Virus record (IMG/VR): IMGVR_UViG_3300025133_000019
Length of the DNA stretch: 64,000 bases
Origin: a virus
Lineage: Duplodnaviria; Heunggongvirae; Uroviricota; Caudoviricetes
Strand: one strand, 5' to 3'
Shown here: positions 27,546 to 62,120 of the stretch, one piece after another
Position numbering within the stretch: position 1 is the first letter of the stretch
How the letters are laid out: the number at the start of each line of letters is the position of its first letter
Translations under genes and position numbers: made by a program
The notes under the pieces: model-generated
Databases searched by the model: none
Seen by the model: the letters and a program-made list of their open reading frames with translations, nothing else
Told to the model about the DNA's origin: nothing

Positions 27546-27555
27546 TTTACAAAAT

Positions 27556-27641: not shown

Positions 27642-27690
27642 CTAATTCGAGTCTTTTATACTTCTTTTAAGTAGAACCTTACTAAGGAGT

Positions 27691-28651: not shown

Positions 28652-28779
28652 GGTAGTATAAAAGACTATATTGACCCGGACTACGAAGATATAACAGTAG
28701 TTAGTATGAATGAAATAAACACCGTAATATGGGAGATGGAGACTGTTGCAACAATCACTATTCCCAAAAGAGAGAAACA

Positions 28780-29190
28780 ATGATTACTGTATTTTTAGGC
28801 GGAACTTTAGGCGATGACTGGAGATCCGAGTTTGTAGAAAGTCTTGGTAGTAATGTAAACCCGTTCAATCCTATTGTAGAAGATTGGAATGAAGGGGCAC
28901 AAAAAATAGAAGAGCAAAAGAAAGCTACCTCCGATTATAATTTATACGTAATAACTCCTAGTATGAAAGGGGTTTTTTCGATTTGTGAAGTTGTTGATGA
29001 TTCTAACAAGAAACCCGAGCAAACAATTTTTGTACCTCTCTTTGAATACAACAACAAAAAGTTTCTAAAAGATGAGTGGAAGTCTCTAGTAGCTGTAGCT
29101 AAAGTAGTGGATAAAAATGGAGCTTATGTGTTTTCGACACTGGAAAAGGCATCTACCGCTTTAAATGGCTTAGGTAAATTAGCAAAGTAA
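28780..29190 (+). CDS. hypothetical protein (possibly nucleoside 2-deoxyribosyltransferase-like)
   Basis: Starts MITVFLGGTLGDDW. The family call rests only on this weak N-terminal resemblance. Confidence 0.4.
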   Translation: MITVFLGGTLGDDWRSEFVESLGSNVNPFNPIVEDWNEGAQKIEEQKKATSDYNLYVITPSMKGVFSICEVVDDSNKKPEQTIFVPLFEYNNKKFLKDEWKSLVAVAKVVDKNGAYVFSTLEKASTALNGLGKLAK

Positions 29191-31503: not shown

Positions 31504-31507
31504 GAGA

Positions 31508-32532: not shown

Positions 32533-32564
32533 TAAGGGCCATAAATTATGGCCCTTATTTTTTA
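32533..32564. terminator. bidirectional rho-independent terminator
   Basis: Palindrome AAGGGCCATAAATTATGGCCCTT plus ATTTTTT, between convergent genes. Confidence 0.65.
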
Positions 32565-33617: not shown

Positions 33618-33625
33618 AAAAATCC

Positions 33626-35070: not shown

Positions 35071-35250
35071 ATGAGTACAAAAGAAATAGACGGACAGACC
35101 TATGACACCGAAGATCTCGATTGTAATGGAAATCTTTATGTTGATGCTATTCCTTATTATACGCATCAGGAGATAGTAAACTGGTTCGACGGTTTAGTAA
35201 AAAAGGTGCAAGAGATTTCGCAAAGCAGTCCCAAGAATAATGGCAAGTAA
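35071..35250 (+). CDS. short DLDCNGNPY-family member
   Basis: MSTKEIDGQTYDTEDLDCNGNLYVDAIP. Confidence 0.4.
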   Translation: MSTKEIDGQTYDTEDLDCNGNLYVDAIPYYTHQEIVNWFDGLVKKVQEISQSSPKNNGK

Positions 35251-35962
35251 TATATGGTTCATAAGTGATACTCATTTTTGGCATCACAAAGTAATTCAGT
35301 ACCAAAGACCGTGTTTCAAAAATGTTGTCGAAATGAATGAGACAATAATTTCGAATTGGAATAGCGTAGTAAAGCCTAGTGACTTAGTTTACTTTTTAGG
35401 GGATTTTAGTTTTTGTGGCACCAATAGATCTTTGGATATTCTTAATGTTTTAAACGGTAAAATCCACTTGATAAAGGGTAATCATGACAGAAAGATGTCA
35501 GCCAACCTTCGTGACCGATTCGAATGGGTCAAGGATATTTATCCGCTAAGAATAGACCATGATTTATACAAGGGATATATCGAGCTGTGTCATTTTCCTT
35601 TTTTAAGTTGGGCAGCGAGTGGTAGAGGCAGATATCATTTATTTGGTCATGCTCACGGTAAACTGGAAACAGATATGTTATCATTAGATGTTAGTGTTGA
35701 AAGGTGGAATTACTTTCCGGTTAACTTAGATACCGTGTTAGCAGAGCTTGAAAAGAAGAAAGAGAGGTTTGAGATGGAAAAGAAGAAAGAGAGGTTTGAG
35801 ATGGAAAAGAGTATAGAAACCACTGGATACGAACCCGTAGGCCCTAATGATGACCCTGGAACAGTGGCTCTCAAAAAGGTCAGAGACAAGCTTCTTAAGA
35901 TGACCCCAACAGAATATGAAGAGCTCTGCGAACGAGCTAAACGAGAGGGATTTACAGGATGA
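35240..35962 (+). CDS. calcineurin-like metallophosphoesterase
   Basis: ISDTHF, GDFSF and GNHD motifs. Contains a tandem EKKKERFEM duplication. Confidence 0.75.
   Translation: MASNIWFISDTHFWHHKVIQYQRPCFKNVVEMNETIISNWNSVVKPSDLVYFLGDFSFCGTNRSLDILNVLNGKIHLIKGNHDRKMSANLRDRFEWVKDIYPLRIDHDLYKGYIELCHFPFLSWAASGRGRYHLFGHAHGKLETDMLSLDVSVERWNYFPVNLDTVLAELEKKKERFEMEKKKERFEMEKSIETTGYEPVGPNDDPGTVALKKVRDKLLKMTPTEYEELCERAKREGFTG
35750..35803 (+). repeat. perfect 27-bp tandem duplication inside a CDS
   Basis: gaaaagaagaaagagaggtttgagatg, two copies. Confidence 0.85.
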
Positions 35963-36640: not shown

Positions 36641-38713
36641 CTATTCGAACGTGTAACCGTAATCTAGGTTACTATATTTCTTTTTGGCTAAAACCCAAAC
36701 TGAGTTTCCGTTAACCTTATCATGGAAATCATTTAATTCTGTTTTCTTAAACCTTAATTTTTGAGGCACAGAAGTATAAGGCGGAGAATAAGTTTGACCT
36801 CTGGAATACAAGTGGGACGCTAGTCCTAGAGTAGGGAGATAGATTTTCTCAAATCCTTTAGCTCTTATAAATTTAATGGATTTTTTAAGGAGTAAATAGG
36901 AAATCTTGTCAACAGGAAAAACTTGCTTCATATTTTCTTTTCCGAATACAGAGGAGAAATCTGTTTGAACTTCGTCGATCCAAACATCTTCATTGTCCTT
37001 ATCCCCAGTAATATCTTTTCCTAGTGTGTATCTGATCCATCCAATTGTTAGATTTCCTTTTATAAACGGATGGCTTGATTGAGAAGTCATGGCATTTATT
37101 TTCTTTCTATTAAGATCGTACAATATTGGAGGAATAATATCTTTAGGGATAACAAGCATCATAACGTGATTTGTGCTAGGAAATATTTTTTGAGCCCCAG
37201 TCCAAGTTTTATGCTTTATCACACTTTTATTCAGAATTATGTTTCTAAATTCTTTTATAGCTTCACTTATTTCTGGATCACTGATGTCTAGAGTTTTTAT
37301 TTCCAATTGTTCTTCTGTCTTGGATATCTCGCTTTTAGGTTGTTTCAAACCTTCTGGGCCAAGTTTCTCTGAGTGAAAACTTCGAGATTCAACTATAAAC
37401 TCCACAGGAATTTTGAATTCAGAATTTAATTTTCCACGGTATTCCTTGATTTTTTGTTGCTGTTCTTGCTTTGATAATTTAGGATCTAGGTTTTGAACAA
37501 ATTTCTTAACAAGAGGAGATACATGAGTTTGATTATATTCCCGGATTAAATTATTTGTGTGTTTGTCTTCTGTTAAATCAAGCTTTTCTATAGTTTCCCA
37601 GCTTACCTCTTCCAATCCACTTTTTTCAAGGTGTCTTACCAAATTGTAAAGAGAAAAAGGTGTGTTTTTTGATATTTCTATTTGCTCAGGGGACTTATGA
37701 GGATCATGAAAGGAAGTTTCAGATAGTTTGTTTTGTAGTTCCTCGGAAATGTATTTTAGATTTCCAGGATCTTTCTCAACAGCTAGCCGAGCCAGTTCTA
37801 AATTATTTTTTAATTCATCAGAAACATATTCTAAATTCCTAGGATCTTCCTCAACCGCAATTTTCGCTAGTTCTAAGTTCCCTTTTAATTCCTCAGAAAC
37901 ATAAAAGAAATTATAAGGCTCTTCCCCAACCGCATACTTAGCTAGCTCTAAATTATTTTTTAATTCATCAGAAACATATTCTAAATTCCTAGGATCTTCC
38001 TCAACCGCAATTTTCGCTAGTTCTAAGTTCCCTTTTAATTCCTCAGAAACATATTCGAAATAGTAAGGACTTTTCCCAACAGCTAGCCGAGCCAGTTCTA
38101 AATTATTTTTTAATTCATCAGAAACATATTCTAAATTCCTAGGATCTTCCTCAACCGCAATTTTCGCTAGTTCTAAGTTCCCTTTTAATTCATCAGAAAC
38201 CTGTCCGAAATTGTCAGGATGTTTGCCAACCGCTAGTTTAGCTAGTTCTAAACTATTTTTCAATTCATCAGAAACATACTGGAAATTCTCAGGGCCTTTC
38301 TCAATCACCCACTTAGTAAACTCTAAATCGTTTCTTAATTCATCAGAAGCATATCCGAAATTTCCAGGGTATGCCTCAACCGCTAGTTTAGCAAATTCTA
38401 AATTGTTTTTTAATTCCTTGGAAACGGACTCGAAAAGATGCGGGTATGCTTTCACTGCCCATGTAGCAAACTCTAAATCGTTTTTTAATTCCTTAGAAAC
38501 ATGTTCGAAATTATAAGGACTCAGCTTAACCGCAATTTTAGCCAGTTCTAAGTCATTTTTTAATTCCTCAGAGACATATCTGAAATTATAAGGATCTTTC
38601 TCAATCATTAATTTAGCTTGTTCTATTTCCTCAGAACTAGCCGAGAATTTTAGTTCTTCTTGAATTAATCTAGATATTTCTTGGTCTATTAATTTCATCT
38701 TAATTCCAATCAA
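36641..38713 (-). CDS. DUF4116-like ~37-aa tandem-repeat protein with a conserved ~330-aa C-terminal domain (690 aa)
   Basis: Repeats of NFxYVSDELKNNLELAKLAV. The C-terminal domain is near-identical to that of the next gene. Confidence 0.65.
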   Translation of the reverse strand: MIGIKMKLIDQEISRLIQEELKFSASSEEIEQAKLMIEKDPYNFRYVSEELKNDLELAKIAVKLSPYNFEHVSKELKNDLEFATWAVKAYPHLFESVSKELKNNLEFAKLAVEAYPGNFGYASDELRNDLEFTKWVIEKGPENFQYVSDELKNSLELAKLAVGKHPDNFGQVSDELKGNLELAKIAVEEDPRNLEYVSDELKNNLELARLAVGKSPYYFEYVSEELKGNLELAKIAVEEDPRNLEYVSDELKNNLELAKYAVGEEPYNFFYVSEELKGNLELAKIAVEEDPRNLEYVSDELKNNLELARLAVEKDPGNLKYISEELQNKLSETSFHDPHKSPEQIEISKNTPFSLYNLVRHLEKSGLEEVSWETIEKLDLTEDKHTNNLIREYNQTHVSPLVKKFVQNLDPKLSKQEQQQKIKEYRGKLNSEFKIPVEFIVESRSFHSEKLGPEGLKQPKSEISKTEEQLEIKTLDISDPEISEAIKEFRNIILNKSVIKHKTWTGAQKIFPSTNHVMMLVIPKDIIPPILYDLNRKKINAMTSQSSHPFIKGNLTIGWIRYTLGKDITGDKDNEDVWIDEVQTDFSSVFGKENMKQVFPVDKISYLLLKKSIKFIRAKGFEKIYLPTLGLASHLYSRGQTYSPPYTSVPQKLRFKKTELNDFHDKVNGNSVWVLAKKKYSNLDYGYTFE
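37690..38640 (-). repeat. tandem ~111-bp coding repeats, several near-identical
   Basis: ttcatcagaaacatattctaaattcctaggatcttcctcaaccgcaattttcgctagttctaagttccc recurs at ~37780, ~37960 and ~38110. Confidence 0.7.
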
Positions 38714-41708
38714 AAATATATCCTGTATCCAGTTTTTTCTTGGCTAAAACCCAAACTTGATTTCCGTCAACTTTTTTGTGAAAACCATTTAATCCCTCTT
38801 TCTTAAACCTCAGTTTTTGTGGGATAGATGTATAAGGAGGAGAATAAGTTTGACCTCTATTATATAAATTAGACGCTAGACTCAGAGTGGGTAAATAAAT
38901 CTTTTCAAATCCTTTAGCCCTTATAAATTTAATGAAGTTTTTCAGGAGTAAGTAAGAGATTTTTTCTATCGGAAAAACTTGTTTCATATTCTCTTTTCCA
39001 AATATATGAGAAAAATCTGTTTGAATCTCGTCAATCCAAACAGACTCATTATCCTTATCCCCAGTAATATCTTTTCCTAGCGAATAACGCACCCATCCTA
39101 TTGTTAAGTTTCCTTTTACGAATGGATGACTGGATTGATTTACCATAGCGTCTATTTTCTTTTCGTTCAATTTGTGTAATTTTGGTGGGATTAGACTTCT
39201 GGGGATTACAAGCATCATAGCGTGGTTCGTGGTAGGAAATATTTTTTGCATCCCAGACCATATAACATGCTTTATCACTCCTTTGTTTAGTATTAAGTTT
39301 CTTAATTCTTTTATTTCCGAGGCTATCTCAGGGTCGCTTATATCTAGAGTTTTGGTCCCTAGGTCTTGTTCATTTCTAGATAAATCTGGTTTAGGCTGTT
39401 TTAAACCTTCGGGCTCAAGTTTCTCGGAGTGAAAGCTACGAGATTCAACTATAAACTCCACAGGAATTTTGAATTCAGAATTTAATTTTCCACGGTATTC
39501 CTTGATTTTTTGTTGTTGCTCGTTTTTTGGTAGACTCTTGTCTAAGTTTTGAACAAATTTCTTAACAAGAGGAGATACATGGGTTTGGTTGTACTCTCTG
39601 ATTAAATTATTTGTGTGCTTGTCTTCTGTTAAATCAAGCTTTTCTATAGTAACCCAATCCACAAACCCAAGATTGTTTTTCTTTAGATATCGTACTAAAT
39701 CATATAAAGAAGCCGGAGTGTTTTTCGAGATTTCTACTTGTTCAGGGGATTTGTGCGGTTTATGGAGAGGATTTTCGGCAAGTTTGTTTAGAATTTCATC
39801 AGAAACAAACTTAAGGTTTTCGTGGCTCTTTTCCACTGCAAATCTAGCCAGTTCTAAGTTCTCTTTCAGTTCATCGGAGGCATACTGGAAGTTAGTATGA
39901 AATTTTTCAATCGCATGCTTAGCGAGGTCGAAATTATTTTTCAATTCATCTGAAACGTACTCAAAATTATAAGGATTTCTATTAATCGCCCGCCAAGCCA
40001 GTTCAAAGTTCCCTCTTAATTCATCGGAAGTATATCGGAAATTGTGAGACCTTTCTTTAACTGCCCATGTAGCAAATGCTAAATTATTTTTTAATTCATC
40101 AGAAACAAATTCGAAATTGCTGGGTTCTAGTTGAATAGCCCATGTAGCCAGATTTACGTCCCCTTTCAATTCATCAGAAACATGCTGGAAATTGTATGGA
40201 TAGTCTTTAATCGCCAGTTTAGCAATCTCTAAGTTATTTTTTAATTCCTCAGAAATAAATTGTAAACTATAAGGATCTTTTTCAATTGCCCACTTAACCA
40301 GTTCGAAATTATTTTTCAACTCATCGGAAATGTTATTGAAATTATAAGAATTTTTTCCAATCGCTAGTTTAGCCAGTTCAAAGTTTCCTTTTAACTCCTC
40401 AGACACATACTGGAAGTTCTTAAAATTTCTTTCAACTGCGTATACAGCCAATGCTAAATTATTCTTCAACTCATTAGAGACTTGCTCGTAATTATAAGAA
40501 CTCTCTCCAACCGCTAGTTTAGCTAGTTCTAAATTATTTTTCAACTCATCGGAAACATACTGGAAGTTATGGGGATTTCTGGTAACAGCGAATTTAGAGA
40601 ACTCTAGGTGCCCTTTCAATTCATCAGAAACGGACTCAAAATTGTGGGGGTCTAATCTAATAGCTATTGTAGCAAGTTCTAGGTTCCCTTTCAACTCATC
40701 AGAAACAGTGCGGAAATTACCGGAAGACTGACTAACCGAAATTCTAGCAAGTTCTAGGTTCCCTTTCAACTCATCAGAAACATTCCAGAAATTAGAAGGA
40801 CTTTTCCCAATCGCATACTTAGCTAGCTCCAGATCCCCTTTCAACTCATCGGAAACATACAAGAAATTCTCAGGATCTTTCCCAACCGCCCACGTAGCAA
40901 ATTCTAAATTTCCTCTCAATTCATCAGAAACAAATTGGAAACTATCAGGATCTTTTCCAATCGCTAGTTTAGCCAGTTCTATATTCCCTCTTAATTCCTC
41001 AGAAACGTATTCAAAATTCTTAGGGCTTTTTTTAACCGCAAGTGTAGCGAGTTCTAGGTTCCCTCTCGATTCCAGGGGGACAAGACGGAAATTGTAAGCG
41101 TATTTTTCGGTTGCGTACTTGGCTAGCTCTATGTTTCCTCTGGCTTCCTCAGAGACGTGCTCAAAATTACCATAATAATAACTAACCGCAAATTTAGCCA
41201 GTTCTAAGTTGCCTTTCAATTTATCGGAAACATGTTGGAAGTTCTTAGGGCTCTTTTCAATCGCTAACTTAGCCAGCTCTAAATTGTTCTTTAACTCATA
41301 GGATACATACCAGTAGTTCTTAGGGCTCTTTTCAATCGAATATTTAGCCAGCTCTAAATTATCCCTCAATTCCTCAGAAACGTGTTGGTAATTATGATAA
41401 TTCTCTGTAATCGCTACTTTAGCCAGTTCTAAGTTATTCTTCAACTCGTCGGACACATACTGAAAATTATAAGTGTTTTCCCCAATCGCAAATTTAGCCA
41501 GTTCTAAATTATTCCTAAGTCTCTCAGAAACATGCTGGAAATTGAAAGTCCCCATTTTAATAGCTAGTTTAGCCAGTTCTAGATTATCTTTATATTCTTC
41601 GGGGAACTTTCCAAAAGAGCGTGAGTCTTTGTTCAGTTCTTTTTTATAGTGATCCAGGCTTTCAGCCAGTCTTACTAATCTAGATATTTCTTGTTCAATG
41701 GATTTCAC
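38700..41708 (-). CDS. DUF4116-like tandem-repeat protein, larger paralog (1002 aa)
   Basis: About 17 repeat units plus the same C-terminal domain (HKSPEQ(I/V)EISKNTP...GQTYSPPYTS). Confidence 0.65.
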   Translation of the reverse strand: MKSIEQEISRLVRLAESLDHYKKELNKDSRSFGKFPEEYKDNLELAKLAIKMGTFNFQHVSERLRNNLELAKFAIGENTYNFQYVSDELKNNLELAKVAITENYHNYQHVSEELRDNLELAKYSIEKSPKNYWYVSYELKNNLELAKLAIEKSPKNFQHVSDKLKGNLELAKFAVSYYYGNFEHVSEEARGNIELAKYATEKYAYNFRLVPLESRGNLELATLAVKKSPKNFEYVSEELRGNIELAKLAIGKDPDSFQFVSDELRGNLEFATWAVGKDPENFLYVSDELKGDLELAKYAIGKSPSNFWNVSDELKGNLELARISVSQSSGNFRTVSDELKGNLELATIAIRLDPHNFESVSDELKGHLEFSKFAVTRNPHNFQYVSDELKNNLELAKLAVGESSYNYEQVSNELKNNLALAVYAVERNFKNFQYVSEELKGNFELAKLAIGKNSYNFNNISDELKNNFELVKWAIEKDPYSLQFISEELKNNLEIAKLAIKDYPYNFQHVSDELKGDVNLATWAIQLEPSNFEFVSDELKNNLAFATWAVKERSHNFRYTSDELRGNFELAWRAINRNPYNFEYVSDELKNNFDLAKHAIEKFHTNFQYASDELKENLELARFAVEKSHENLKFVSDEILNKLAENPLHKPHKSPEQVEISKNTPASLYDLVRYLKKNNLGFVDWVTIEKLDLTEDKHTNNLIREYNQTHVSPLVKKFVQNLDKSLPKNEQQQKIKEYRGKLNSEFKIPVEFIVESRSFHSEKLEPEGLKQPKPDLSRNEQDLGTKTLDISDPEIASEIKELRNLILNKGVIKHVIWSGMQKIFPTTNHAMMLVIPRSLIPPKLHKLNEKKIDAMVNQSSHPFVKGNLTIGWVRYSLGKDITGDKDNESVWIDEIQTDFSHIFGKENMKQVFPIEKISYLLLKNFIKFIRAKGFEKIYLPTLSLASNLYNRGQTYSPPYTSIPQKLRFKKEGLNGFHKKVDGNQVWVLAKKKLDTGYIFDWN

Positions 41709-42217
41709 TCAGTCAATTCCCCTATCGCTTCAACAAGGTCTTTAGGCAAGGTTCTGGTGCTGACCGCCTTAAGGTCCATTAGTCTGATGAAAATCCCTGT
41801 AATCTCGGGGTCATTATATAATACCTCTCTTATTTCCTTAGGAGTATTGTATATATCATTCCAATGCTTTTTTACAGCTTCCCTGAAGATTTCTATTATA
41901 TCTGGGTCCTTGCTCAGTTGTTGCGTTAATTCTTCAGACATATAGGTTATAACGTACCAGTTAGCCAGTACACATTTCTTAGCCATCAAGTATAAATCAG
42001 GCTCTTTATATATCTGTTCTTTAAACTTTGGGGGTATGTAATCTATGTTTCTCCAGTGGTTTTCTACGCATTTCTTAGCTATAAGGCATACTTCAGGACT
42101 TTTTTCTAACTCTTCTCTTATATTATCTGGGATATAGTGTATTCTCGACCAATTATTCTGTACAGCCCTAATAGCAAGTGCGTACTCTCTTTGGGAGTTA
42201 GTTTTTAGTTCTGTCAT
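41705..42217 (-). CDS. repeat protein with four ~32-aa units (NHWRNIDYIP...LYLMAKKCV)
   Basis: Internal repeats visible in the translation. Confidence 0.5.
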   Translation of the reverse strand: MTELKTNSQREYALAIRAVQNNWSRIHYIPDNIREELEKSPEVCLIAKKCVENHWRNIDYIPPKFKEQIYKEPDLYLMAKKCVLANWYVITYMSEELTQQLSKDPDIIEIFREAVKKHWNDIYNTPKEIREVLYNDPEITGIFIRLMDLKAVSTRTLPKDLVEAIGELTE

Positions 42218-42713: not shown

Positions 42714-42865
42714 AAAATATGCCGAGGTCGTATAATTAGGAGAGGTTAACCTCTCAGGACACTATCTGGATTATAGAGGTGGCGGTGGGACCCCGTTCCT
42801 TGGCTCTAAAAAATAGGAAAACGTAGTAAACAGAAGTAAACGCTAGTAATAGCGACGTAATTCGG

Positions 42866-42951
42866 TGCAGGATAGAGAAGTCTGGTATCTCGGGTGTCTC
42901 ATAAGCACTTTACTTGTAGTGAGTACGAAGGTTCGAATCCTCCTCCTGCCT
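42866..42951 (+). tRNA. class II tRNA-like gene with a CAU anticodon (Met-type loop CTCATAA)
   Basis: D-arm GAGA/TCTC, anticodon stem GGTGT/GCACT, variable arm TACT-TGTAGTG-AGTA, T-arm GAAGG-TTCGAAT-CCTCC (one A-C mismatch), acceptor TGCAGGA/TCCTGCC (T-C at positions 1-72). Confidence 0.45.
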
Positions 42952-42954
42952 TAG

Positions 42955-48300: not shown

Positions 48301-50030
48301 AAATCTTGATATTTACAGACAAATCCTGTAAAATCAATTTCAATTGAAACACCTGACAATTTAATTATATAAATCGCTTTAAACATTCAAATGAATAAAG
48401 ATCTAACACTAACCCTAGAATCCAAGATCCCAAATCTTGGAGACACATATCAAAAACTGGAGTCATACTCCAGTTTTTACGGTCATCTGGAAAGAATTCT
48501 TTTTCAAATTCTAGTAAAAACCCCTGTAATTGATTCTGAGTTCAGAAAAAACTTGAAAAAAAAGTTTCACTCGTAAATATAATATTCAAGCAAGAATTTT
48601 TAATGCGCTTTGGATTCAAGTTAAAGGTAAATTAGATTCTTTTAAAGAGAGCAAGAAAAGGGAAGAAAAACAACTAAAATCTAAAATAAAAAATTTAAAA
48701 TCTGGCATCAAAAAAGTTAGTAAAGAGCTTGATAACAAGAAAAGAAAACATGGTAAAGGATTCATTAAGCTAAAACCTCATGAAATTAAGCTCAAAAGAC
48801 AAAAGCTTCATTTCCAGAACTCAAAACTAAACAAACTAGAAAATTTTGTTAAAAACAAGAATCTAACATTTGGCGGTTATTCCTTTTTCTTAAAACAGTA
48901 TACTAACCCGGAATATATAGAAAATCATGATTCCTGGTTAACCGAGTGGAAAAGACGGAGAAACAACCACTTTTACTTCATAGGAAGTAAAGACGAGGTC
49001 AGCCAAAATCAACATTCCCAATATAATTTAGATGAAACTGGATTAGAAACACTTAGATTAACTCTTCCTTATCACGTAGAAAAAGAGTTAGGAAAACATC
49101 TTGTTATCCCGGTTAAATTCAGTTCTCACCTGGAAAAGAAAAACGAAAGATACTACAATTACTTTCAGGAAGCAAGAAATCAAAAAGTAGCTTTAAGTTA
49201 TAATTTTTTAAAAAGAGAAAACGGAGTTTGGTATGTTCAAGTAACTTTTAGTATAAAAAAGAAAGTTTATGAAAATAAAAATGGATTTATAGGAATAGAT
49301 TTAAACTACGATCTCATAGCTACTGCTAGTAGCAATAGCTCCGGGAATTACGTTGGATTTAAAAACTACAATTTTAATTCAGAAAACAAAACTGCTGGTC
49401 AAACCAAAAATGAACTTTCCCTTATAATTAACGAAATAGTTAAACTAGCAAAACAAGAGAGCCGGGGAATAGTTATAGAAAAACTGGATTTCAGTAATTT
49501 GAAATTAAAACCGAGATCCAAAACTACTAACAGGAAATTAAACCTGATTCAATATTCAGTTTTCAGAGTTTTATTGGAATCTAGATGCCTAAAACAAGGT
49601 GTACAATTAAAGTTAGTGAATCCAGCTTACACCTCGGTCATAGGAAAATATAAATATGCTAAAAGGTATGGGATAAATTCTCATACCTCAGCAGCATTAG
49701 TAATAGCCCGAAGGGGCTTTTACTCGGCTAAAGAGAGATTACCTGTTCAGTTGACCGATATCCTCCGCAGAGGAGAAGAACAAAAATTTGAAAAAATTTT
49801 TAGATATCGACACCACTGGAGCGCTTGGAATTATCTCTCTAAAAATCTTGAAAAATGTTTGAAGTATGTTATAATGATATACGGAGATTCTTTTAATACT
49901 GGAAATAATTTTAGAATTACGGAAGGAATTAACATGAACTATCTAACCTCAAGATTTAATCCTGAGAAGAAGTCGTTCCTTCTTAGGTATCACGGATTTT
50001 CTGCGAATCAGGAAACGCCATGATTTTTTT
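48301..50030 (+). mobile_element. TnpB-like insertion element, copy 3 (approximate), splitting a family E gene
   Basis: Flanked by the N- and C-terminal family E fragments. The TnpB stop lies within ~8 nt of the right boundary. Confidence 0.5.
48391..50023 (+). pseudogene. divergent TnpB-like protein lacking the zinc finger, frameshifted in an A8 run (48555-48562)
   Basis: Frame 1 runs 48391-48576 and frame 2 runs 48557-50023 with no ATG. RuvC-I IGIDLNYDLIA; RuvC-II IVIEKLD; VNPAYTSVIG without Cys; RuvC-III-like INSHTSAALVIARRG with the Asp replaced. Confidence 0.55.
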
Positions 50031-55615: not shown

Positions 55616-56638
55616 ATGAGTGGATTCCGAAAATTTAATTCTATAAAAGAAGTTGTCCTCCAAAAATACCTTGATCGAGTCTACAGAGAAGGTTATGGAG
55701 ACGAGGTTTTTGTGGTTCTCGAAAAATACCACGGAGCCAACTTCGGTGTAATTGTAGACGACCAAGGGGTCAGGTGTCAATCCAGAGAGCTGTTGTTGGA
55801 AGAGGATGCCAGCTTCTATGATTACGAGCACATACTAGAAAGAGACCGTGAAAAATTCAAACAGGTATTCGATTTCTTTAAATCTTCTTTTCAAGGAGTA
55901 AACTCTATAATTTTATACGGGGAATTAGTAGGCGGGGTCTATGACCATCCCGAGTATAACAAAAAAATAAGGGACAACATAATTCAGCACGAAGTCCACT
56001 ATGCTCCTGACACGGATTGTGTATTCTTTGACATTTTTATTAGAGGGGATAGAGAACACTATCTAAATCACCTTGACGTAGTTACTATGATAAATTCTTA
56101 TGAGCTTAAATACTCAGAAGTTCTGTTTGAGGGAAGTCTTAAGGATTGCTTGGAATTCTCAGCTAAAACTAATGGAGACCCTTCTCTTGGGTTCAAGAAG
56201 TGGGGTTTACCCGAGATAGCTGACAACATCAGAGAGGGTAATGTAATAAAACCATTGAAATCCCTATTTTTCAAAGACGGTAGAAGGATCATTTTTAAGG
56301 ATAAAAATGATAAATTCAGAGAGACCTTGGCAAGAAAGAAGCCGGATCTGGGGGCCACTGAGAGATCAAAGGAAGCCAGAGAACTGATAAAGGACTTTGT
56401 CACGGAAGCTAGGCTCAAAAGTGTTTTAAGCAAGCATTCCAGGTTTAGTCAAAAGGATTTTGGAAAGCTAATGGGACTTTATATGAAAGACGTGATTGAA
56501 GATTTTAGAGATCATTATCCCGATGTTTTTTCTGATACCTCTAAAAAAGAAAGAAGCTCTATCACAAAACATGCTACAGGGTTAGCACAGCGTCTTATAA
56601 TGAGCAGTTTTGCAAAAATTGTAGACGGAACTTACTAA
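55616..56638 (+). CDS. Rnl2-family ATP-dependent RNA ligase
   Basis: Motif I EKYHGANFG (KxHGxN) and motif III ILYGELVGG. About 340 aa, matching the T4 Rnl2 layout. Confidence 0.8.
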   Translation: MSGFRKFNSIKEVVLQKYLDRVYREGYGDEVFVVLEKYHGANFGVIVDDQGVRCQSRELLLEEDASFYDYEHILERDREKFKQVFDFFKSSFQGVNSIILYGELVGGVYDHPEYNKKIRDNIIQHEVHYAPDTDCVFFDIFIRGDREHYLNHLDVVTMINSYELKYSEVLFEGSLKDCLEFSAKTNGDPSLGFKKWGLPEIADNIREGNVIKPLKSLFFKDGRRIIFKDKNDKFRETLARKKPDLGATERSKEARELIKDFVTEARLKSVLSKHSRFSQKDFGKLMGLYMKDVIEDFRDHYPDVFSDTSKKERSSITKHATGLAQRLIMSSFAKIVDGTY

Positions 56639-56646
56639 GGGGGACT

Positions 56647-56892
56647 ATGACTTTTTATAGATCGTATATAAAAGTTTTACATGATTGGATGCAGGTTAAC
56701 GGAATTGAGTCTATTCCTTTGCCTTATAGAGACGGAGCTTCCATCAAAGCCAGGAGAACAGCTTTAGCAGAGATGCTAGAGATGACTTGTCCCGAAAGAG
56801 ACAAGGAAATTCCTGCATTATGCGTAATAGGCTTTGCCTCTATTACAGAAGAAGATATAACATGGGCAAAAAAGGCTTTGAGAAATGAGTAA
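56647..56892 (+). CDS. hypothetical small protein
   Basis: 81-aa ORF. Confidence 0.35.
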   Translation: MTFYRSYIKVLHDWMQVNGIESIPLPYRDGASIKARRTALAEMLEMTCPERDKEIPALCVIGFASITEEDITWAKKALRNE

Positions 56893-57097
56893 AACCAAAA
56901 AAGATTGTACATACGATATTAATGTAGATGATTTTTTCGACGCTGTCTCAGAATTTACGGCGGGTGTGAAATCTGCTTTAGAATCTAATACTTTGAAAGT
57001 CATTGTAGACAGAGAAGAAGATTCTGTTCAAGTAATAAGAGAGCTGGAAACCCTGGAAATAATTCCTCCAGAAAGTTTAGAATCAATGTTTCTTTAA
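56885..57097 (+). CDS. hypothetical small acidic protein
   Basis: 70-aa ORF. Confidence 0.35.
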   Translation: MSKTKKDCTYDINVDDFFDAVSEFTAGVKSALESNTLKVIVDREEDSVQVIRELETLEIIPPESLESMFL

Positions 57098-57252
57098 AAA
57101 GTGGAGTTAGATGAGGTTTCCGGGCAATTCGTGTTCCATTTATTAGGAGGATTCGAGGAGGTGGATTCTGATGATAGTAGCTAGTTCAAAAAAATCAGGA
57201 CTTGGACCTATTTTAGGTTGACATACTTTAAATTTTGTATTAACATAAAACT

Positions 57253-57642
57253 ATGGAAAACAAAAACGAGTATATAGTTGTGGCCAGGAGAAACAAATTT
57301 AAAGAGTCTCTTGATGCTAGACTTGTAGACGGGTTTGTTGTAGGTAATGCTAGAAAGTTTGCTAGTGTGATAGGAGATGAGACCACTTTGATAAGCCAAG
57401 CAGGAAAAGAAGAGGAAGATATACTTCATCTTATTGACCTAGGGTTTACAGATGACTTTAATCACAATATAAAAGTTATTCTAGAAGAGCGTATGAAATC
57501 TTTTAGAACTGGCAAGGCAAACCGAAAATATGAGCCCTTTATAGCTAGACGTTCTGCGAGTAGTTCAGATGTCATAAAGTTCTCCAGGAAATTAAGAAAA
57601 CAAGGACTTTTAACCAAAGTAGTAGAATTAACTCTTGAATAG
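57253..57642 (+). CDS. hypothetical protein
   Basis: 129-aa ORF. Confidence 0.4.
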   Translation: MENKNEYIVVARRNKFKESLDARLVDGFVVGNARKFASVIGDETTLISQAGKEEEDILHLIDLGFTDDFNHNIKVILEERMKSFRTGKANRKYEPFIARRSASSSDVIKFSRKLRKQGLLTKVVELTLE

Positions 57643-57682
57643 GTATAAGAGTTAGTGCTATCCTAATATAGGAGGAGAAAAC

Positions 57683-58621
57683 ATGGACACAGATATTTTA
57701 CAAGATATTGACGAGCTAGCTGAGTATAATTGGACTGATAAACTGGATGACCACAAAAAAGAGATTGTGGAGAAGCACAACTCTCAAATCAAGAGAGAGC
57801 TTATGGGGGTTGATAAGCAAAGAATGTTTTCCAACCTGTTCGCTAGTGGATACGGGCTAGGTGCAATTAGCTTGTCTACATTAATGATCTATTTCTTTAT
57901 AGCCGGAAGTGTTCCATGGGGACTGGGAGTGGCAACTGCTTTTGCTTTTTATAGCCTTTCCTTTGGGGGCCTTTGCAAATTTTCGAAGGCTAAATTTCAA
58001 AATTTTGTTTATAGCACCCATGCCAAAGAGTTCTTGAATATCAGTGAGTATGATCTCACTCCTCAGGATCTTATCGGGTTTTATGACAGTCAAGTAACTG
58101 ATACTCTCAGGGAAAAAACTGATAAACTGAAGACCTACAGAGAAGATATAGCTACTAATATCAGTGAGTGTGAAGAAGCAATTCGACAATGCACCGAGAT
58201 TTCGGACTCCACTATAGATAAAAGTGTGATTTACGATCTTGAAGCTCGAAAAAATGAGCTTAAAGTAGCCGAAGAAGAGTTGGGCTCCTATAGAACAGTG
58301 ATGAGGAAGCTGGAAGTTAGCTTTGAGAACAAAGTAGAAGATCTCAAAGGGATCATGAACAGAGAAAAAGAGCTTGAGAAGAAATACGAAGAGTACGAGA
58401 ACCTTAGCAATAAGGTGTCTCACCTGCTTGGTAAGTCTAAAGTTTCCTTGGTGAAGTGGGAAGAAGAAAAAGAAAAGCTTCAAACCGAAATTGCTGAAAT
58501 GGTCGGAGGATTTCAACAGCAGCTTTCATATGCGGGTCAAACCGTTAAAGAGTCTTTGTTAATAGATTGTTCCGTGGAAGTAGAAGTCGAGGCCGAGCTA
58601 GAGAGGAGTGCGGGGGCATGA
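57683..58621 (+). CDS. membrane-anchored coiled-coil protein
   Basis: Two TM helices followed by a long charged helical region. Confidence 0.5.
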   Translation: MDTDILQDIDELAEYNWTDKLDDHKKEIVEKHNSQIKRELMGVDKQRMFSNLFASGYGLGAISLSTLMIYFFIAGSVPWGLGVATAFAFYSLSFGGLCKFSKAKFQNFVYSTHAKEFLNISEYDLTPQDLIGFYDSQVTDTLREKTDKLKTYREDIATNISECEEAIRQCTEISDSTIDKSVIYDLEARKNELKVAEEELGSYRTVMRKLEVSFENKVEDLKGIMNREKELEKKYEEYENLSNKVSHLLGKSKVSLVKWEEEKEKLQTEIAEMVGGFQQQLSYAGQTVKESLLIDCSVEVEVEAELERSAGA

Positions 58622-58872
58622 TAATATTCGCAATACTCGGCATCGCTGTAGCCATGGTAGCAACAGTCGATTATATTAATCTGTTTTGTAAGAGAAGCTC
58701 ATTAACATCTCCAGAACTGTTTGTTCTGGAGCACCGAGATGACAGAGGAAGGGTCTATTTTCACAGGGACGAGATTATAGCGAAACTTCCCGATCTTCAG
58801 GATAACGAGGGCAACAGACTTTTTTATACCGAGGATCAGTTAATAAACCAGCTATTAGAAGAGAACAAGTAA
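58567..58872 (+). CDS. small single-pass membrane protein
   Basis: 101-aa ORF with an N-terminal TM helix. Confidence 0.35.
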   Translation: MFRGSRSRGRAREECGGMIIFAILGIAVAMVATVDYINLFCKRSSLTSPELFVLEHRDDRGRVYFHRDEIIAKLPDLQDNEGNRLFYTEDQLINQLLEENK

Positions 58873-58881
58873 AGCATTGAA

Positions 58882-58916
58882 CAGGACTCCTAATGAGGAG
58901 TCCTGTATTATTATTT
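58882..58916 (+). terminator. rho-independent terminator
   Basis: CAGGACTCCT-AATG-AGGAGTCCTG followed by TATTATTATTT. Confidence 0.65.
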
Positions 58917-59279
58917 AAGGAATTAGTTATGGAAAAGCCTAGAGTATTAGGTTCTAATTTATCAGTAAGTTTTGGATTTGGGTACGGGTACGGTGGATGT
59001 GTCCAATCTCCTACAACTATTACCATCGAAATAAAGAGCACAGCAGAATTGTACTTGATTAATTTATATTTTAATTTAGATAGCAAGCCCTTTCATGTAT
59101 TAGGAATGGGGAAAATAAGTGAAAACCAATCTTTATTGTGTAAACAAGCCTTAGATTCAGGTTCTAGCGAGGTAATGTTAGACTTGCTAAGGACAGTTGG
59201 TTCTCTACAAGAACTAGAGATTCTGAAAGAATCTAAAGATTCGGGAGTAAGCGTAAGAAATGTACACGTCATTGAATGA
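58893..59279 (+). CDS. hypothetical protein
   Basis: 128-aa ORF. Confidence 0.4.
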   Translation: MRSPVLLFKELVMEKPRVLGSNLSVSFGFGYGYGGCVQSPTTITIEIKSTAELYLINLYFNLDSKPFHVLGMGKISENQSLLCKQALDSGSSEVMLDLLRTVGSLQELEILKESKDSGVSVRNVHVIE

Positions 59280-59862
59280 TATACACGGTGTTTTTTGGTC
59301 TGGCACAGTTGCAGCAGTGTTAGGACCTAGTGATTCAGGAAAAACAGAGCTGTCCGTATTAGAAGCAGTTAAACTAGCTAATGAAAGAATGAGTGTTGCT
59401 TATATAAGTTTTGACACTGTTCAAGATAAGCTGGAAACCTTATCCAATAGGTTCTTTGACCTCAAGACTGATACAAAAGTTCCTATATATCTTAAATTGG
59501 TCTCTCAGTTTGATTGCTATTCTTTAGATGAATGTTTCTCCCATAATTCAAGTCTTGTAATATTAGATCCGATAGATAAATTGGCTGAGTACCTAAGGAT
59601 AGATGAAAACACTTTGTTTAAGAGTTTGAAGGAGAAAGTGAGGCAGAAGAGAGTCGCTGTTCTGGCTGTTAAACAAGTGTCTTCCTCTTTAGATATTTCC
59701 CAGGAGTTTGATAAATTGGGTTTGGAACCTGGACTGTCTTTGCATGTGGATAATATTTTCAATTGTGACAAAAGAAATATGTCTTGCAATCTACAAGTCC
59801 TAAAGTCAAATGCTCATGGAGCAGGGTTTAATTTTAACGTTCATTTAGTCCCGATAAAATGA
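59260..59862 (+). CDS. RecA-superfamily P-loop ATPase (Sak4-like or KaiC-like)
   Basis: Walker A GPSDSGKT and Walker B-like LVILDPID. Confidence 0.5.
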   Translation: MYTSLNDIHGVFWSGTVAAVLGPSDSGKTELSVLEAVKLANERMSVAYISFDTVQDKLETLSNRFFDLKTDTKVPIYLKLVSQFDCYSLDECFSHNSSLVILDPIDKLAEYLRIDENTLFKSLKEKVRQKRVAVLAVKQVSSSLDISQEFDKLGLEPGLSLHVDNIFNCDKRNMSCNLQVLKSNAHGAGFNFNVHLVPIK

Positions 59863-60317
59863 GTAAGAAGTTTAGCCAGAAGCTTTACGATCAAAACGAT
59901 CTAAAAACTAAAGAACTGGTTTATAAGTTCTTGTCTCTTTACTTTCCTTGCTATAAACTAATTCCCATAGCAGACCAGGAAGAGTGCTATAAATCCCATG
60001 ACTTAGTTATTATAGATACTCGTACTAACAAGCAGGTTCTTTTAGAAGTGGAACGGAAAGCAGTTTGGTATAAAAGAGGGGAGTGGCAGGGCTGGGATAC
60101 AGTTGACATTCCTTACAGAAAAAAAGACTCTAAAGCCAAGTACTTCTTTATGGTCAACAAGTGGTTTGATACCTTGCTGGTTATAAAAATGTCTAAAATT
60201 TTAGAGTCTTCTGTTATTACAAAATCAACTATATATACTCAGGAAGAGAAATTCTTTAGAATCCCGGTTTCAGAGTTTAAACTTGTTTGCTTACCTTCCG
60301 AACTTCATGGTTCCTAA
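59859..60317 (+). CDS. hypothetical protein
   Basis: 152-aa ORF whose stop lies in the first iteron unit. Confidence 0.45.
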   Translation: MSKKFSQKLYDQNDLKTKELVYKFLSLYFPCYKLIPIADQEECYKSHDLVIIDTRTNKQVLLEVERKAVWYKRGEWQGWDTVDIPYRKKDSKAKYFFMVNKWFDTLLVIKMSKILESSVITKSTIYTQEEKFFRIPVSEFKLVCLPSELHGS

Positions 60318-60407
60318 AAAAGGAACTTCATGGTTCCTAAAAAAGGAACTTCATGGTTCCTAAAAAAGGAACTTCATGGTTCCTAAAAAAGGAACTTCGT
60401 AAAACGG
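60298..60407. repeat. array of four and a half 23-bp direct repeats, each holding the palindrome GGAAC-TTCATG-GTTCC plus A6
   Basis: aaaaaaggaacttcatggttcct repeated. It lies between convergent genes. Confidence 0.85.
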
Positions 60408-61262
60408 AGCCTCGTAGTTAAAAGCTGTTCCTAGTAACGGTTGATTCCCATAAAGATTTCCGAAAAGGTATTGGTCAAACTGAAGATCGAAAAGCTCCTG
60501 GGAAAAATAAGGTCTGGGAGTACCGTACAAATTGTATTCCGTGCTATTATACCTTGAGCTATATTCTTGGTTATTTTCAAAATTGAAATTGAATTCAAAA
60601 TTTAAGGAAGGACTATCAGCAGGTTCTCTGTCGTTAAGCAACTCCTGTATCATATCCTTCAATTCGCCTAACGAACTGTCAGGAAGGTTATTGAGAGAAT
60701 CCTTCAATTCTGACAGGGTATTGTTGAATTCCTCTAGGATACCTTCGAAAAGACCAGGAAGACCTGCCATACCATCTGAAATGCCTCCTAAAGAGTCTTG
60801 TAGCCCATCAAGAGAGTCATTGATCCCTCCCAAGGAATCTCCGAGACCTCCTACAGTGTTTTCAAGACCATCAAGAGAGTCGGTAATCCCTCCTAAAGAG
60901 TCTCCAAGATCTCCTACGGTATCGTTAAGATCCTCGACTGAGTCTTCTAACTCATCAAGAGTCTCGCTTATATCGTCAAGAGCAGGTATATCTATAGTTC
61001 CTCCAGACCCACCTTTTTTACTGGGTGAGGCATTGATTTCTAGATCTGGTTGACCTAGATCTTCTATTGGAGTAGTAGAAGGCGTTGGCTGCTGAGTCCT
61101 GGGGTCTTTATAAGTGACACCTTGATCCACATTTGTTTTGGGTTGACTAGGAGCTTTGGGCTGCTCGGTTTGCTTGGGCTGTTTTGGGGTAGAGGACTTA
61201 CCGCTTCCCTTGGTTCCTGGTATATTTAATGAGCTGTCAATTTTCATCTTTACTTCTTTCAA
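60360..61262 (-). CDS. low-complexity Gly/Asp/Leu-repeat protein (DSLGG(I)xDSLDGL repeats)
   Basis: 300-aa ORF with a Pro/Lys/Gln-rich N-terminal region. Confidence 0.5.
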   Translation of the reverse strand: MKEVKMKIDSSLNIPGTKGSGKSSTPKQPKQTEQPKAPSQPKTNVDQGVTYKDPRTQQPTPSTTPIEDLGQPDLEINASPSKKGGSGGTIDIPALDDISETLDELEDSVEDLNDTVGDLGDSLGGITDSLDGLENTVGGLGDSLGGINDSLDGLQDSLGGISDGMAGLPGLFEGILEEFNNTLSELKDSLNNLPDSSLGELKDMIQELLNDREPADSPSLNFEFNFNFENNQEYSSRYNSTEYNLYGTPRPYFSQELFDLQFDQYLFGNLYGNQPLLGTAFNYEAPFYEVPFLGTMKFLF

Positions 61263-61343
61263 AAAGTTATAATATAGTTATCGGCATTTCTTCGGTTTTT
61301 CTTTAGCATTGATTTTTTATCTTTTACATGCTATAATGAAAGT

Positions 61344-62120
61344 ATGATAGAAAAACTAACAGCGAAACAAATAAAGAACAGACTAGAAAGATACCAACAA
61401 AGCCCGTATACACACTCTTTTACCTGTAGAGTAGAGTCCTGCCCAACTGATTTAACTCCTATTATAAAGCATAACAAAGTTTTTTTAAAGTGCGGGGTTT
61501 GTGGGCATACTCAAAACGATTTCACGGTTCCGGAAATCTCTGCTTTAGACAGTCTAGAATTAGCAGTCACAAAACTAGATCCTAAAAAAACAAAAAAGAT
61601 AAGCAAATATCTAAGCAAGGTTCTTAGGCACAAACCGGATTCTATAGAGCTAAAACTTGATTCTCAAGGGTGGGCTTGTGTAAACGAACTAATCAAAAAG
61701 TCTGGCGTGTTTATGACACCAGAGATTATTAACTGGGTCGTTCAGAATAATGATAAGCAAAGATTCGCTTTGAGTAAAGACGGCAGGAAGATAAGAGCTA
61801 ACCAAGGCCACACGATAAAAGTGGATTTAGGGTTGGAACCTAGTATTCCTCCCTCAATTTTATATCACGGGACAGCCACTAAGAATTTGGAGCAAATTTT
61901 CAAATATGGATTGCAGCCTTGCCAAAGAACCCATGTCCATTTAACCGAGAATTACGAAACCGCTGTTAACACAGGAAAACGACACGGAACCCCTATAGTA
62001 TTATTGATAGACGCTGAGTCAATGGTAAAAGAAATAGAATCTTCTTTCTTTTTAACAGAAAATAATGTATGGTTAACTGAAACCGTTTTGCCAAAGTATT
62101 TAAAGATTGAGGGGGAGTAA
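61344..62120 (+). CDS. Tpt1/KptA RNA 2'-phosphotransferase with an N-terminal zinc-ribbon extension
   Basis: LSKVLRHKPDSIELKLDSQGWACVNELI, the HGT motif (LYHGTATKNLEQI) and RTHVHLTE. The N-terminal extension has CRVESC...CGVCGH. Confidence 0.8.
   Translation: MIEKLTAKQIKNRLERYQQSPYTHSFTCRVESCPTDLTPIIKHNKVFLKCGVCGHTQNDFTVPEISALDSLELAVTKLDPKKTKKISKYLSKVLRHKPDSIELKLDSQGWACVNELIKKSGVFMTPEIINWVVQNNDKQRFALSKDGRKIRANQGHTIKVDLGLEPSIPPSILYHGTATKNLEQIFKYGLQPCQRTHVHLTENYETAVNTGKRHGTPIVLLIDAESMVKEIESSFFLTENNVWLTETVLPKYLKIEGE

Follow-up and report, generated by a model that had tools for sequence, protein, structure and literature searches.

The 64,000-nucleotide (nt) stretch analysed here (the window), which belongs to the virus record IMGVR_UViG_3300025133_000019 (Caudoviricetes), encodes three apparently active RNA-end-processing enzymes: a T4 Rnl2-type RNA ligase, a small ligase-like protein that consists of a bare nucleotidyltransferase domain, and a Tpt1/KptA RNA 2'-phosphotransferase that carries a zinc-ribbon module at its N-terminus. 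Each of them falls within its enzyme family with intact catalytic residues and a matching fold, and all three are retained in a diverged relative, referred to below as the sister genome. The most likely use of these enzymes is the repair of RNA broken by ribotoxins, as already proposed for jumbo phages, a reading in which our confidence is about even. We infer each of the steps that couple the enzymes, namely that they share substrates, that host nucleases are the source of the damage, and which enzymes phosphorylate the 5' end and open the cyclic phosphate. A preliminary description of the window had joined the three genes with a calcineurin-type metallophosphoesterase into a healing-and-sealing pathway that runs through a 2'-phosphate. 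The identities and active sites on which that proposal was built hold, but the genes are unclustered, no polynucleotide kinase or cyclic phosphodiesterase was found in the roughly 82 kb examined, the phosphoesterase is a common one, neither ligase is of the Trl1 type, and the small ligase and Tpt1 hardly ever co-occur in phages.

The four open reading frames (ORFs) lie exactly where the preliminary description had placed them, all on the plus strand, and the window also contains tRNA genes. These features are the following, with lengths and ranges of proteins given in amino acids (aa) and AF2 standing for AlphaFold2:

22595-23218, plus strand: stand-alone nucleotidyltransferase-only RNA-ligase-like enzyme, 207 aa (Pfam, PHROGs, AF2, Foldseek)
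27458-27642, plus strand: two adjacent tRNA-Ser genes, anticodons TGA and GCT (ARAGORN; Rfam RF00005, 43 and 49.9 bits)
35240-35962, plus strand: calcineurin-type metallophosphoesterase, 240 aa (Pfam PF00149 1.8e-7, phrog_547 1.1e-54)
42865-42952, plus strand: tRNA gene with a CAT anticodon, 88 nt (ARAGORN; Rfam RF00005, 39 bits)
55616-56638, plus strand: two-domain T4 Rnl2-type ATP-dependent RNA ligase, 340 aa (Pfam, PHROGs, PDB alignment)
61344-61586, plus strand: N-terminal extension of Tpt1, aa 1-81 (Cys positions, alignment, AF2)
61587-62120, plus strand: Tpt1/KptA RNA 2'-phosphotransferase catalytic domain, aa 82-258 (Pfam, PHROGs, PDB, AF2/Foldseek)

The region examined comprises the window and about 18 kb of flanking sequence, about 82 kb in all, of a genome of at least 374 kb. 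Domain searches with Pfam, PHROGs and NCBIfam covered essentially all plausible ORFs of at least 83 aa, the flanks being assessed through precomputed Pfam matches, and occurrence in phages was counted in a collection of 50,697 phage records.

A divergent Rnl2-type RNA ligase

The protein encoded at 55616-56638 had been recognised as an Rnl2-family ligase by its KYHGAN motif I, and both of its domains bear this out. Pfam places RNA_ligase (PF09414, 1.3e-21) ahead of T4_Rnl2_C (PF18043, 2.8e-14, aa 248-321), and the RNA ligase family phrog_548 matches over the full length (1e-57). The best PDB match is T4 Rnl2 (gp24.1; 2hvq/1s68), with which the window enzyme shares the architecture of a nucleotidyltransferase domain followed by the signature all-helical Rnl2 C-terminal domain; both domains align, the latter with residues 204-298 of 2hvq. 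The motif residues K37 (motif I, in EKYHGAN at aa 36), E103 (III), E207/K212 (IV) and K228/K230 (V) stand opposite K35, E99, E204/K209 and K225/K227 of the T4 enzyme. Unlike its T4 counterpart, the window ligase has no recognisable T4-type Pnkp nearby; it is only 25-32% identical to T4-like Rnl2 proteins, and its full-length alignment with the NCBIfam Rnl2 model TIGR02307 (4.7e-42) scores 144.7 bits, below the equivalog cut-off of 197.15. Judged from these alignments, the protein is a divergent but complete Rnl2-type ligase, which the NCBIfam rule does not count as an equivalog. Rnl2 homologs are present in 1,405 phage records, and the gene is therefore an ordinary one.

A ligase-like enzyme with a nucleotidyltransferase domain only

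The protein encoded at 22595-23218 is, as far as its model indicates, a ligase-type nucleotidyltransferase devoid of any accessory domain that defines a numbered class. Pfam finds PF09414 RNA_ligase alone (3.3e-28), and PHROGs finds phrog_34045 (3e-80) and phrog_24030, named 'RNA ligase' (4e-72). The minimal KxDG nucleotidyltransferase of the preliminary description is readily recognised in its motifs, which comprise EKSDGEN at aa 41 (K42-S-D44-G45 forming motif I), E91-N92, EGYVVRV at aa 159 (E159-G160) and K180/R183; upon alignment the motif I lysine is retained here as it is in the Rnl2-type enzyme. K42, D44, G45, E91, E159, G160, K180 and R183 are invariant in 31 members of the family, which has more than 3,900 homologs, many of them 55-67% identical to the window protein. 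Members are either stand-alone proteins of about 210 aa or, in a fusion that is often seen, proteins of about 340 aa with an N-terminal HNH-type domain. To our knowledge, no member of this family has a solved structure or a tested activity.

The AF2 model, with a predicted local distance difference test score (pLDDT) of 88, consists of a single nucleotidyltransferase domain. Foldseek ranks archaeal Rnl3 and Rnl5 (NgrRnl, from Naegleria) nearest to this model, followed by T4 Rnl2 and then by Trl1/Rnl1, with template-modelling (TM) scores that are only about 0.5 against all RNA ligase classes (E 7e-7 to 1e-3 for classes 3, 5, 2 and 1). The protein is without the C-terminal domain of Rnl1 and Rnl2, the N-terminal and dimerisation domains of Rnl3, and the N-terminal OB-like domain of Rnl5. 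Comparison with the PDB by sequence and by family profile returned nothing significant, the best profile match being 3qwu (E = 0.018) in the company of spurious matches to fatty-acid-binding proteins, and NCBIfam returned no match. Because the protein has a single domain, no NCBIfam match and a TM score of about 0.5 to every class, it is not assignable to a numbered class. The attempt to classify both ligases thus placed the one at 55616-56638 with Rnl2, whereas the one at 22595-23218 fits no class.

The closest described relatives of the small ligase are the HNH-domain ligases of the jumbo phages CcrSC (Caulobacter, gp219) and ME3 (Acinetobacter, gp200), together with the stand-alone ORF260 of XacN1. 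The window protein is 48-56% identical to their ligase part, and the motifs K-x-D-G, E-N, E-G and K-x-V-R are invariant in both, but it is a bare domain with neither an HNH domain nor an accessory domain at either terminus. Ligases of the Rnl2 family that carry an HNH domain at the N-terminus have already been noted in jumbo phages (Iyer et al., 2021, PMC7824862), and these HNH-fused proteins, grouped there with Rnl2 in a broad sense, apparently belong to the same family as the small ligase. The modelled fold is no nearer to Rnl2 than to Rnl3 or Rnl5. The small ligase occurs in 33 of the 50,697 phage records, all of them genomes of 144-735 kb that include the CcrSC group of Caulobacter phages, XacN1, SCTP-2, Atu_ph07 and uncultured huge phages.

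In the window, the small ligase is preceded not by RNA-repair genes but by three giant tandem paralogs that lie immediately 5' of it (12750-22585, plus strand). Around residue 200, each of these proteins of 1118, 1272 and 895 aa contains a PcfJ-like domain. This tandem arrangement is kept in the sister genome, in which a fourth PcfJ-like gene further upstream is truncated by the end of the locus. The overlapping ORF downstream of the ligase (23208-23711) was considered as a trans-acting ligase partner and rejected, since its N-terminus resembles a signal peptide and no homolog of it stands beside the ligase in CcrSC, XacN1 or ME3. Next to it (23708-24075, plus strand) are two short fragments that look like a decayed gene copy: they show 45-50% identity to an R2K ATP-grasp gene which, intact and encoding 278 aa, is located after the small ligase of the sister genome; the window has an intact R2K ATP-grasp gene at 29198-29911.

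A Tpt1/KptA enzyme with an N-terminal zinc-ribbon module

The product of 61344-62120 had been described as a Tpt1/KptA homolog with an additional zinc ribbon, and profiles place it in this family. Its match to PTS_2-RNA (PF01885, 4.9e-47) scores 160.7 bits against a cut-off of 26 and spans aa 82-246, which leaves some 80 extra residues at the N-terminus, and it also matches the RNA 2'-phosphotransferase family phrog_5470 (2.7e-60). In the NCBIfam equivalog test the best model, NF002014, gives 219.4 bits, just under its cut-off of 239. The motifs LRHKP (aa 94), HGT (aa 175) and HVHL (within QRTHVHL at aa 194) are in place. By sequence, the nearest solved relative is the Tpt1 of Runella slithyformis (7kw8, 1.4e-45), to which the core is 45% identical. 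The catalytic tetrad R95-H96-R151-R195 aligns with R16, H17, R64 and R119 of the Runella enzyme, so that all four residues are kept. Among 29 homologs, R95, H96 and R195 are invariant, and position 151 is Arg in 26 and Lys in the other three. The AF2 model of the full-length protein (pLDDT 89) recovers the two-lobed Tpt1 fold, in which a winged-helix RNA lobe is joined to an ADP-ribosyltransferase lobe for NAD+. Foldseek superimposes it on TkoKptA and Clostridium thermocellum Tpt1 with target-normalised TM scores of 0.85-0.90 and root-mean-square deviations of 1.6-2.3 Å (E about 1e-17). Fold and tetrad are thereby the same as in the Runella enzyme, in C. thermocellum Tpt1 (6e3a) and in Thermococcus kodakarensis KptA (9ld*).

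The core of the window Tpt1 shows identities of about 50-57% to KptA proteins of bacteria and metagenomes and of 36-46% to the copies found in phages. Tpt1 homologs are present in 98 of the 50,697 phage records, and the earlier remark that the enzyme is rarely reported in phages is only partly accurate, as many of these copies are annotated as RNA 2'-phosphotransferase or kptA, a dedicated family (phrog_5470) exists, and phage KptA is discussed in the literature (PMC7824862; PMC9503650). From related phage kptA genes, such as those of phiCD211, Erwinia phage Y3 and Bacillus phage G, the window gene differs by its N-terminal module of about 80 aa, made of a helix and the zinc ribbon.

As a sequence feature, the zinc ribbon is real. 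Residues 1-81 comprise a helix (7-19), a beta-hairpin bracketed by Cys28/Cys33 and Cys50/Cys53, the strands of which (36-42 and 45-50) are modelled with pLDDT 73-88, and a linker helix. The four cysteines, which presumably bind zinc, align with four cysteines of a 47%-identical homolog (P0121). When the module alone was compared with 1.8 billion proteins, only weak homologs appeared (E 1e-6 to 1e-3), mostly stand-alone proteins of 70-100 aa. These share invariant Q18, H24, T27, C28, C50, C53 and Q57 and have, at the second ligand position, either Cys or a His located one residue further on. Pfam and PHROGs contain no named family that matches the module, which yielded just sub-threshold matches to generic zinc-ribbon families. 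Fusion of the module to Tpt1 was seen in three protein clusters, including that of the window, among the 120 best of 2,800 matches, and no phage record in the collection covers the N-terminal module. Between the Rnl2 and Tpt1 genes, the sole gene on the minus strand (60360-61262) encodes a low-complexity protein with DSLGGI/DSLDGL repeats and a faint Baculo_PEP_C-like match; in the sister genome, its location and orientation are unchanged.

The metallophosphoesterase and the tRNA genes

The identity of the metallophosphoesterase at 35240-35962 was correctly given in the preliminary description, as seen from the PF00149 and phrog_547 matches and from the calcineurin-type metal-binding motifs D10-x-H12, G54-D55, G80-N-H-D83 and G136-H-A-H139. 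The same DxH, GD, GNHD and GHxH motifs are found in phrog_547 phosphoesterases and in the uncharacterised Aquifex aeolicus protein aq_1665 (1xm7, 1.2e-12), which is the best PDB match. In contrast, the PDB search detected no similarity to the phosphoesterase of C. thermocellum Pnkp (CthPnkp) or to lambda phosphatase at E <=0.1. The family is present in 1,608 phage records of all kinds, and the window gene has as neighbours the genes of HtrA-like proteases and one with a weak DUF5984-like match. Its inclusion in an RNA-repair set is not supported, given a ubiquitous phage family, aq_1665 as the nearest relative and no linkage to a kinase or ligase. The sole link to RNA repair is a general precedent, namely the ability of calcineurin-type enzymes to heal 3' ends of RNA (PMC1920235; PMC7824862), and the window phosphoesterase is most reasonably regarded as a common phage gene unrelated to the RNA enzymes. 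Its C-terminal tail contains an exact tandem duplication of nine residues, EKKKERFEM. The adjacent HtrA-like genes encode two serine proteases (Trypsin_2 and PDZ domains; 32562-34876, minus strand) and lie downstream of genes for an AAA ATPase and an SPFH/Band-7 protein (30034-32506). Together they form a protein-quality-control-like set that is unusual for a phage.

Three tRNA genes in the window substantiate the earlier statement that the genome carries its own tRNAs. The 88-nt length of the tRNA with the CAT anticodon suggests a long variable arm, which would be unusual for a Met or Ile2-type tRNA, and single-sequence folding of this tRNA gives a z value of about 0.

Gene context and conservation in the sister genome

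The four genes that the preliminary description had grouped are real, but the span it gave for the group, 55616-62120, covers only two of them, and the set extends from 22.6 to 62.1 kb amid unrelated genes. The three RNA enzymes are separate genes and not an operon. The sister genome is collinear with the window across both regions that contain them and keeps all three: its small ligase is 67% identical to that of the window, its Rnl2-type ligase, in which motifs I, III, IV and V are preserved, 50%, and its Tpt1, zinc ribbon included, 47%. Genes neighbouring the retained enzymes have drifted to 29-45% identity. The sister genome also encodes a cREC_REC protein (PF20274, 107 aa; L017 17116-17439), located 6.5 kb downstream of its small ligase and before its AAA/SPFH genes. 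The cREC domain is predicted to open cyclic phosphates, and operonic links of this domain to RNA ligases have been reported (PMC7824862; PMC9503650).

A likely role in RNA repair and its alternatives

Rnl1 and Rnl2 ligases, some of them fused to HNH domains, KptA and occasional calcineurin-like phosphatases have been described as components of jumbo-phage RNA repair, and a role in this process has been proposed for KptA in a few jumbo phages (PMC7824862; PMC9503650). If the enzymes of the window were used in this way, the cyclic phosphate at a break would be opened by a further enzyme, such as the cREC-like protein of the sister genome, and the 5' end would be phosphorylated by a kinase, neither of which is among the genes in the 82 kb examined. 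Tpt1 together with NAD+ would then remove the resulting 2'-phosphate, either from the terminal nucleotide before ligation or from the junction afterwards. The break would be sealed by the Rnl2-type enzyme, whose kind acts on 3'-OH/5'-PO4 nicks in structured RNA, perhaps with the bare ligase taking part, and the tRNAs of the phage itself could serve as a parallel safeguard. Some Tpt1 enzymes are able to remove terminal 2'- and 3'-phosphates (PMC6573784), which would make those enzymes end-healers.

Two known systems are related to this scheme. With the Trl1 and Tpt1 splicing pathway of yeast and plants, the logic of which the preliminary description copies, the window has in common the NAD+-using Tpt1 for removal of the 2'-phosphate; the 2'-PO4-dependent ligase, the 2H cyclic phosphodiesterase and the polynucleotide kinase of that pathway were not found in the 82 kb. 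In the T4 system, in which Pnkp and Rnl1/Rnl2 undo the damage caused by PrrC, ATP-dependent RNA ligases and phage tRNAs are set against anticodon nucleases, as they would be here, but the 82 kb yielded no Pnkp (kinase and HAD phosphatase). Repair by the T4 route leaves 2'-OH/3'-OH ends and has no need for Tpt1. PMC1920235 sets this route against that of yeast.

Several observations weigh against a common repair function. The search for a kinase or cyclic phosphodiesterase, which the preliminary description had suggested, had a negative outcome in the 82 kb of the genome that were covered: neither Pfam, PHROGs and NCBIfam nor a crude scan for paired HxT/S and P-loop motifs revealed a polynucleotide kinase or a 2H, cREC, RtcB, Macro or Nudix protein, and a NADAR domain was likewise not detected in the window or its flanks. 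The one P-loop protein considered as a polynucleotide kinase (59260-59862) resembles RadB/DnaB-type ATPases and was rejected. With no 5'-kinase, ATP-dependent ligases cannot seal RNA cut by a ribotoxin. Even at E = 10, no homolog of the sister cREC protein was found in the window or its flanks, and the syntenic slot (26.4-28.7 kb of the window) is occupied by the two tRNA-Ser genes and a gene for an HNH endonuclease (27691-28467). Synteny with the sister genome extends over the whole block and is not specific to the genes of the RNA enzymes, which are located at 22.6, 55.6 and 61.3 kb with unrelated genes in between, so that the four-gene set is spread over 40 kb. Of the 33 records in the phage collection that contain the small ligase and the 98 that contain Tpt1, essentially one, LR756500.1, is common to both. 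No annotated RNA-repair genes flank the small ligase in CcrSC, XacN1 or ME3, and in phiCD211 and Erwinia phage Y3 kptA is surrounded by hypothetical genes, with no RNA ligase, kinase or cyclic phosphodiesterase adjoining it. Neither ligase of the window resembles the 2'-PO4-dependent Trl1 type, as judged by PDB alignment for the Rnl2-type enzyme and by fold for the small one. Finally, the Runella Tpt1, which is the closest characterised relative of the window enzyme, is reported to be inept at removing terminal phosphates (PMC6573784).

The alternative that survives best, which we consider possible but clearly less probable than anti-ribotoxin repair, is that the enzymes act independently of one another. 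Tpt1 would then use NAD+ for another purpose, for example the ADP-ribosylation of 5'-phosphate ends, to cap or mark RNA or DNA, or the erasure of regulatory internal 2'-phosphates of tRNA, with the zinc ribbon providing the targeting, and each ligase would have its own unrelated substrates. The scattered genes, the healing enzymes missing from about 82 kb, the near-absence of phages with both the small ligase and Tpt1, and the solitary kptA genes of phiCD211 and Erwinia phage Y3 would all be expected in this case. Archaeal KptA acts on tRNA 2'-phosphouridine, which is a precedent for the second of these activities. For the first, 5'-end ADP-ribosylation is catalysed by bacterial and mammalian Tpt1 (PMC12678800). 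What Tpt1 does in taxa that lack a fungal-type ligase has been called obscure (PMC6573784). Against independence, two RNA ligases, tRNA genes and Tpt1 are kept together both in the window genome and in the sister genome, the latter also has the cREC gene, and published comparative genomics favours RNA repair for phage KptA (PMC7824862; PMC9503650).

Two variants of the repair reading are more speculative, and we regard them as doubtful. In a kinase-poor route driven by NAD+, the zinc-ribbon Tpt1 might act as the 3'-end healer in place of the Pnkp phosphatase and take off the 2'- or 3'-phosphate that host ribotoxins leave, with the bare ligase or the Rnl2-type enzyme sealing the break. Alternatively, the bare ligase might itself accept 2'-PO4 ends, in which case a yeast-like pathway with a 2'-phosphate junction would be present in a bacterial virus for the first time. 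The zinc ribbon could in either case direct Tpt1 to tRNA or to the ligase.

A strict fungal/plant-type route is unlikely. In it, the cyclic phosphate would be converted to a 3'-OH/2'-PO4 end, a ligase that requires the 2'-PO4 would seal the break and Tpt1 would clear the 2'-PO4 from the junction. The Tpt1 residues that align with the catalytic tetrad would allow the last step, and the small ligase might in principle accept such ends. Moreover, one mutation is enough to let a calcineurin-type phosphoesterase produce 2'-PO4 ends, which yeast tRNA ligase splices and T4 Rnl1 does not (PMC1920235). The remaining components argue the other way: a Trl1-type ligase is lacking and one of the two ligases is of the Rnl2 type, the model of the small ligase places Trl1 structures (6n0t, 8rbj and 9qw7) below Rnl3, Rnl5 and Rnl2, the 2H cyclic phosphodiesterase and the kinase are not found in the window and its flanks, and the phosphoesterase is unlike CthPnkp and lambda phosphatase at the threshold given above.

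The genome as probably that of an uncultured huge phage

The window very probably belongs to an uncultured huge phage. An identical small-ligase protein is encoded on a contig of 374,268 bp. Eight metagenomic contigs encode an identical Tpt1, and one of the eight belongs to the size class of 0.2-1 Mb. A contig that overlaps the window matches it with 99.99% identity. The ORFs of the window are dense and mostly one-directional, many are short orphans without family matches, and a number of the proteins match phage-specific PHROGs. The recognisable gene content includes an isolated gene for translation initiation factor IF3, two TnpB elements, the three giant PcfJ-like genes, DUF4116-repeat proteins, two HtrA-like proteases, SPFH and AAA proteins and HNH endonucleases. 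The IF3 gene, which adjoins a TnpB gene, is complete and of the bacterial type, and its usual cellular neighbours are not there. IF3 homologs in phage records include those of the huge phages LR756500.1, LR756501/3 and Atu_ph07, and LR756500.1 encodes IF3, the small ligase and Tpt1 together. The huge-phage reading rests on the dense one-directional orphan ORFs, the solitary tRNAs, the HNH and TnpB genes, the isolated IF3, the small ligase confined to phage genomes of 144-735 kb and the trio of genes in LR756500.1.

That the sequence instead derives from a cellular genome or another large mobile element, so that the enzymes would be ordinary housekeeping or stress RNA-repair genes and not a counter-defence, is very unlikely. 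In favour of this reading, capsid, portal, terminase and tail genes were not recognised in the 82 kb examined, an IMG/VR scan with Tpt1 gave no close relative, a nucleotide search of the phage collection with the Rnl2-Tpt1 block matched no phage record, and IF3, HtrA-like proteases and an SPFH protein are encoded. Against it, besides the lone IF3, which is without its cellular neighbours, no ribosomal-protein or further housekeeping gene was recognised in the 82 kb, most ORFs are short orphans on one strand, there are matches to phage-specific PHROGs, and, among phages, it is in huge ones that IF3, the small ligase and Tpt1 are again found in combination.

Further features of the window

1681-2511, minus strand: DUF3841 protein
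4212-5694, plus strand: IS605-family TnpB (OrfB), split, with two overlapping ORFs (227 and 282 aa)
9828-10358, minus strand: translation initiation factor IF3 (IF3_N and IF3_C)
10479-11780, minus strand: IS605-family TnpB (OrfB), intact, 433 aa
28729-29190, plus strand: small protein with a sub-threshold nucleoside 2-deoxyribosyltransferase-like match (PF15891, 28 bits against a cut-off of 30)
36641-42217, minus strand: three consecutive DUF4116-repeat proteins, 690, 1002 and 170 aa

The split of the TnpB gene at 4212-5694 suggests a frameshift or decay, and on two other contigs no gene is called over the helix-turn-helix part of this element. A further remnant of a TnpB element is possibly located at 48766-50023, where about 630 bp without any ORF of at least 35 aa and without an Rfam family at threshold (48766-49399) are followed by an ORF (49499-50023) with a sub-threshold match to the Cas12f/TnpB TNB domain. 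In the sister genome (L015 15649-15852), a 1001-aa protein combines faint DUF4116 matches with a poly(ADP-ribose) polymerase (PARP) catalytic domain (PF00644); Pfam showed no PARP match in the DUF4116 proteins of the window. The small protein at 28729-29190 is 59% identical to its sister-genome counterpart, and the true start of the gene at 124-1056 lies beyond the window.

Significance

The RNA-repair equipment already catalogued for jumbo phages comprises KptA, several ligases of the Rnl2 family, ligases fused to HNH domains, tRNAs and, occasionally, phosphatases of the calcineurin type (PMC7824862; PMC9503650). The finding is mainly one more huge-phage example of this catalogued repertoire and does not constitute a new system. 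What is new, modestly, is the fusion of a zinc-ribbon module to Tpt1 and the existence of a ligase family in the form of a bare nucleotidyltransferase domain. If the enzymes do cooperate, this genome would provide a natural test case for a long-standing puzzle, the function of Tpt1/KptA in bacteria and their viruses, which lack a fungal-type tRNA ligase. The question is open to experiment thanks to a large family of bare ligases (more than 3,900) that is biochemically untouched, the targeting-like zinc ribbon on Tpt1 and the cREC gene in the sister genome.

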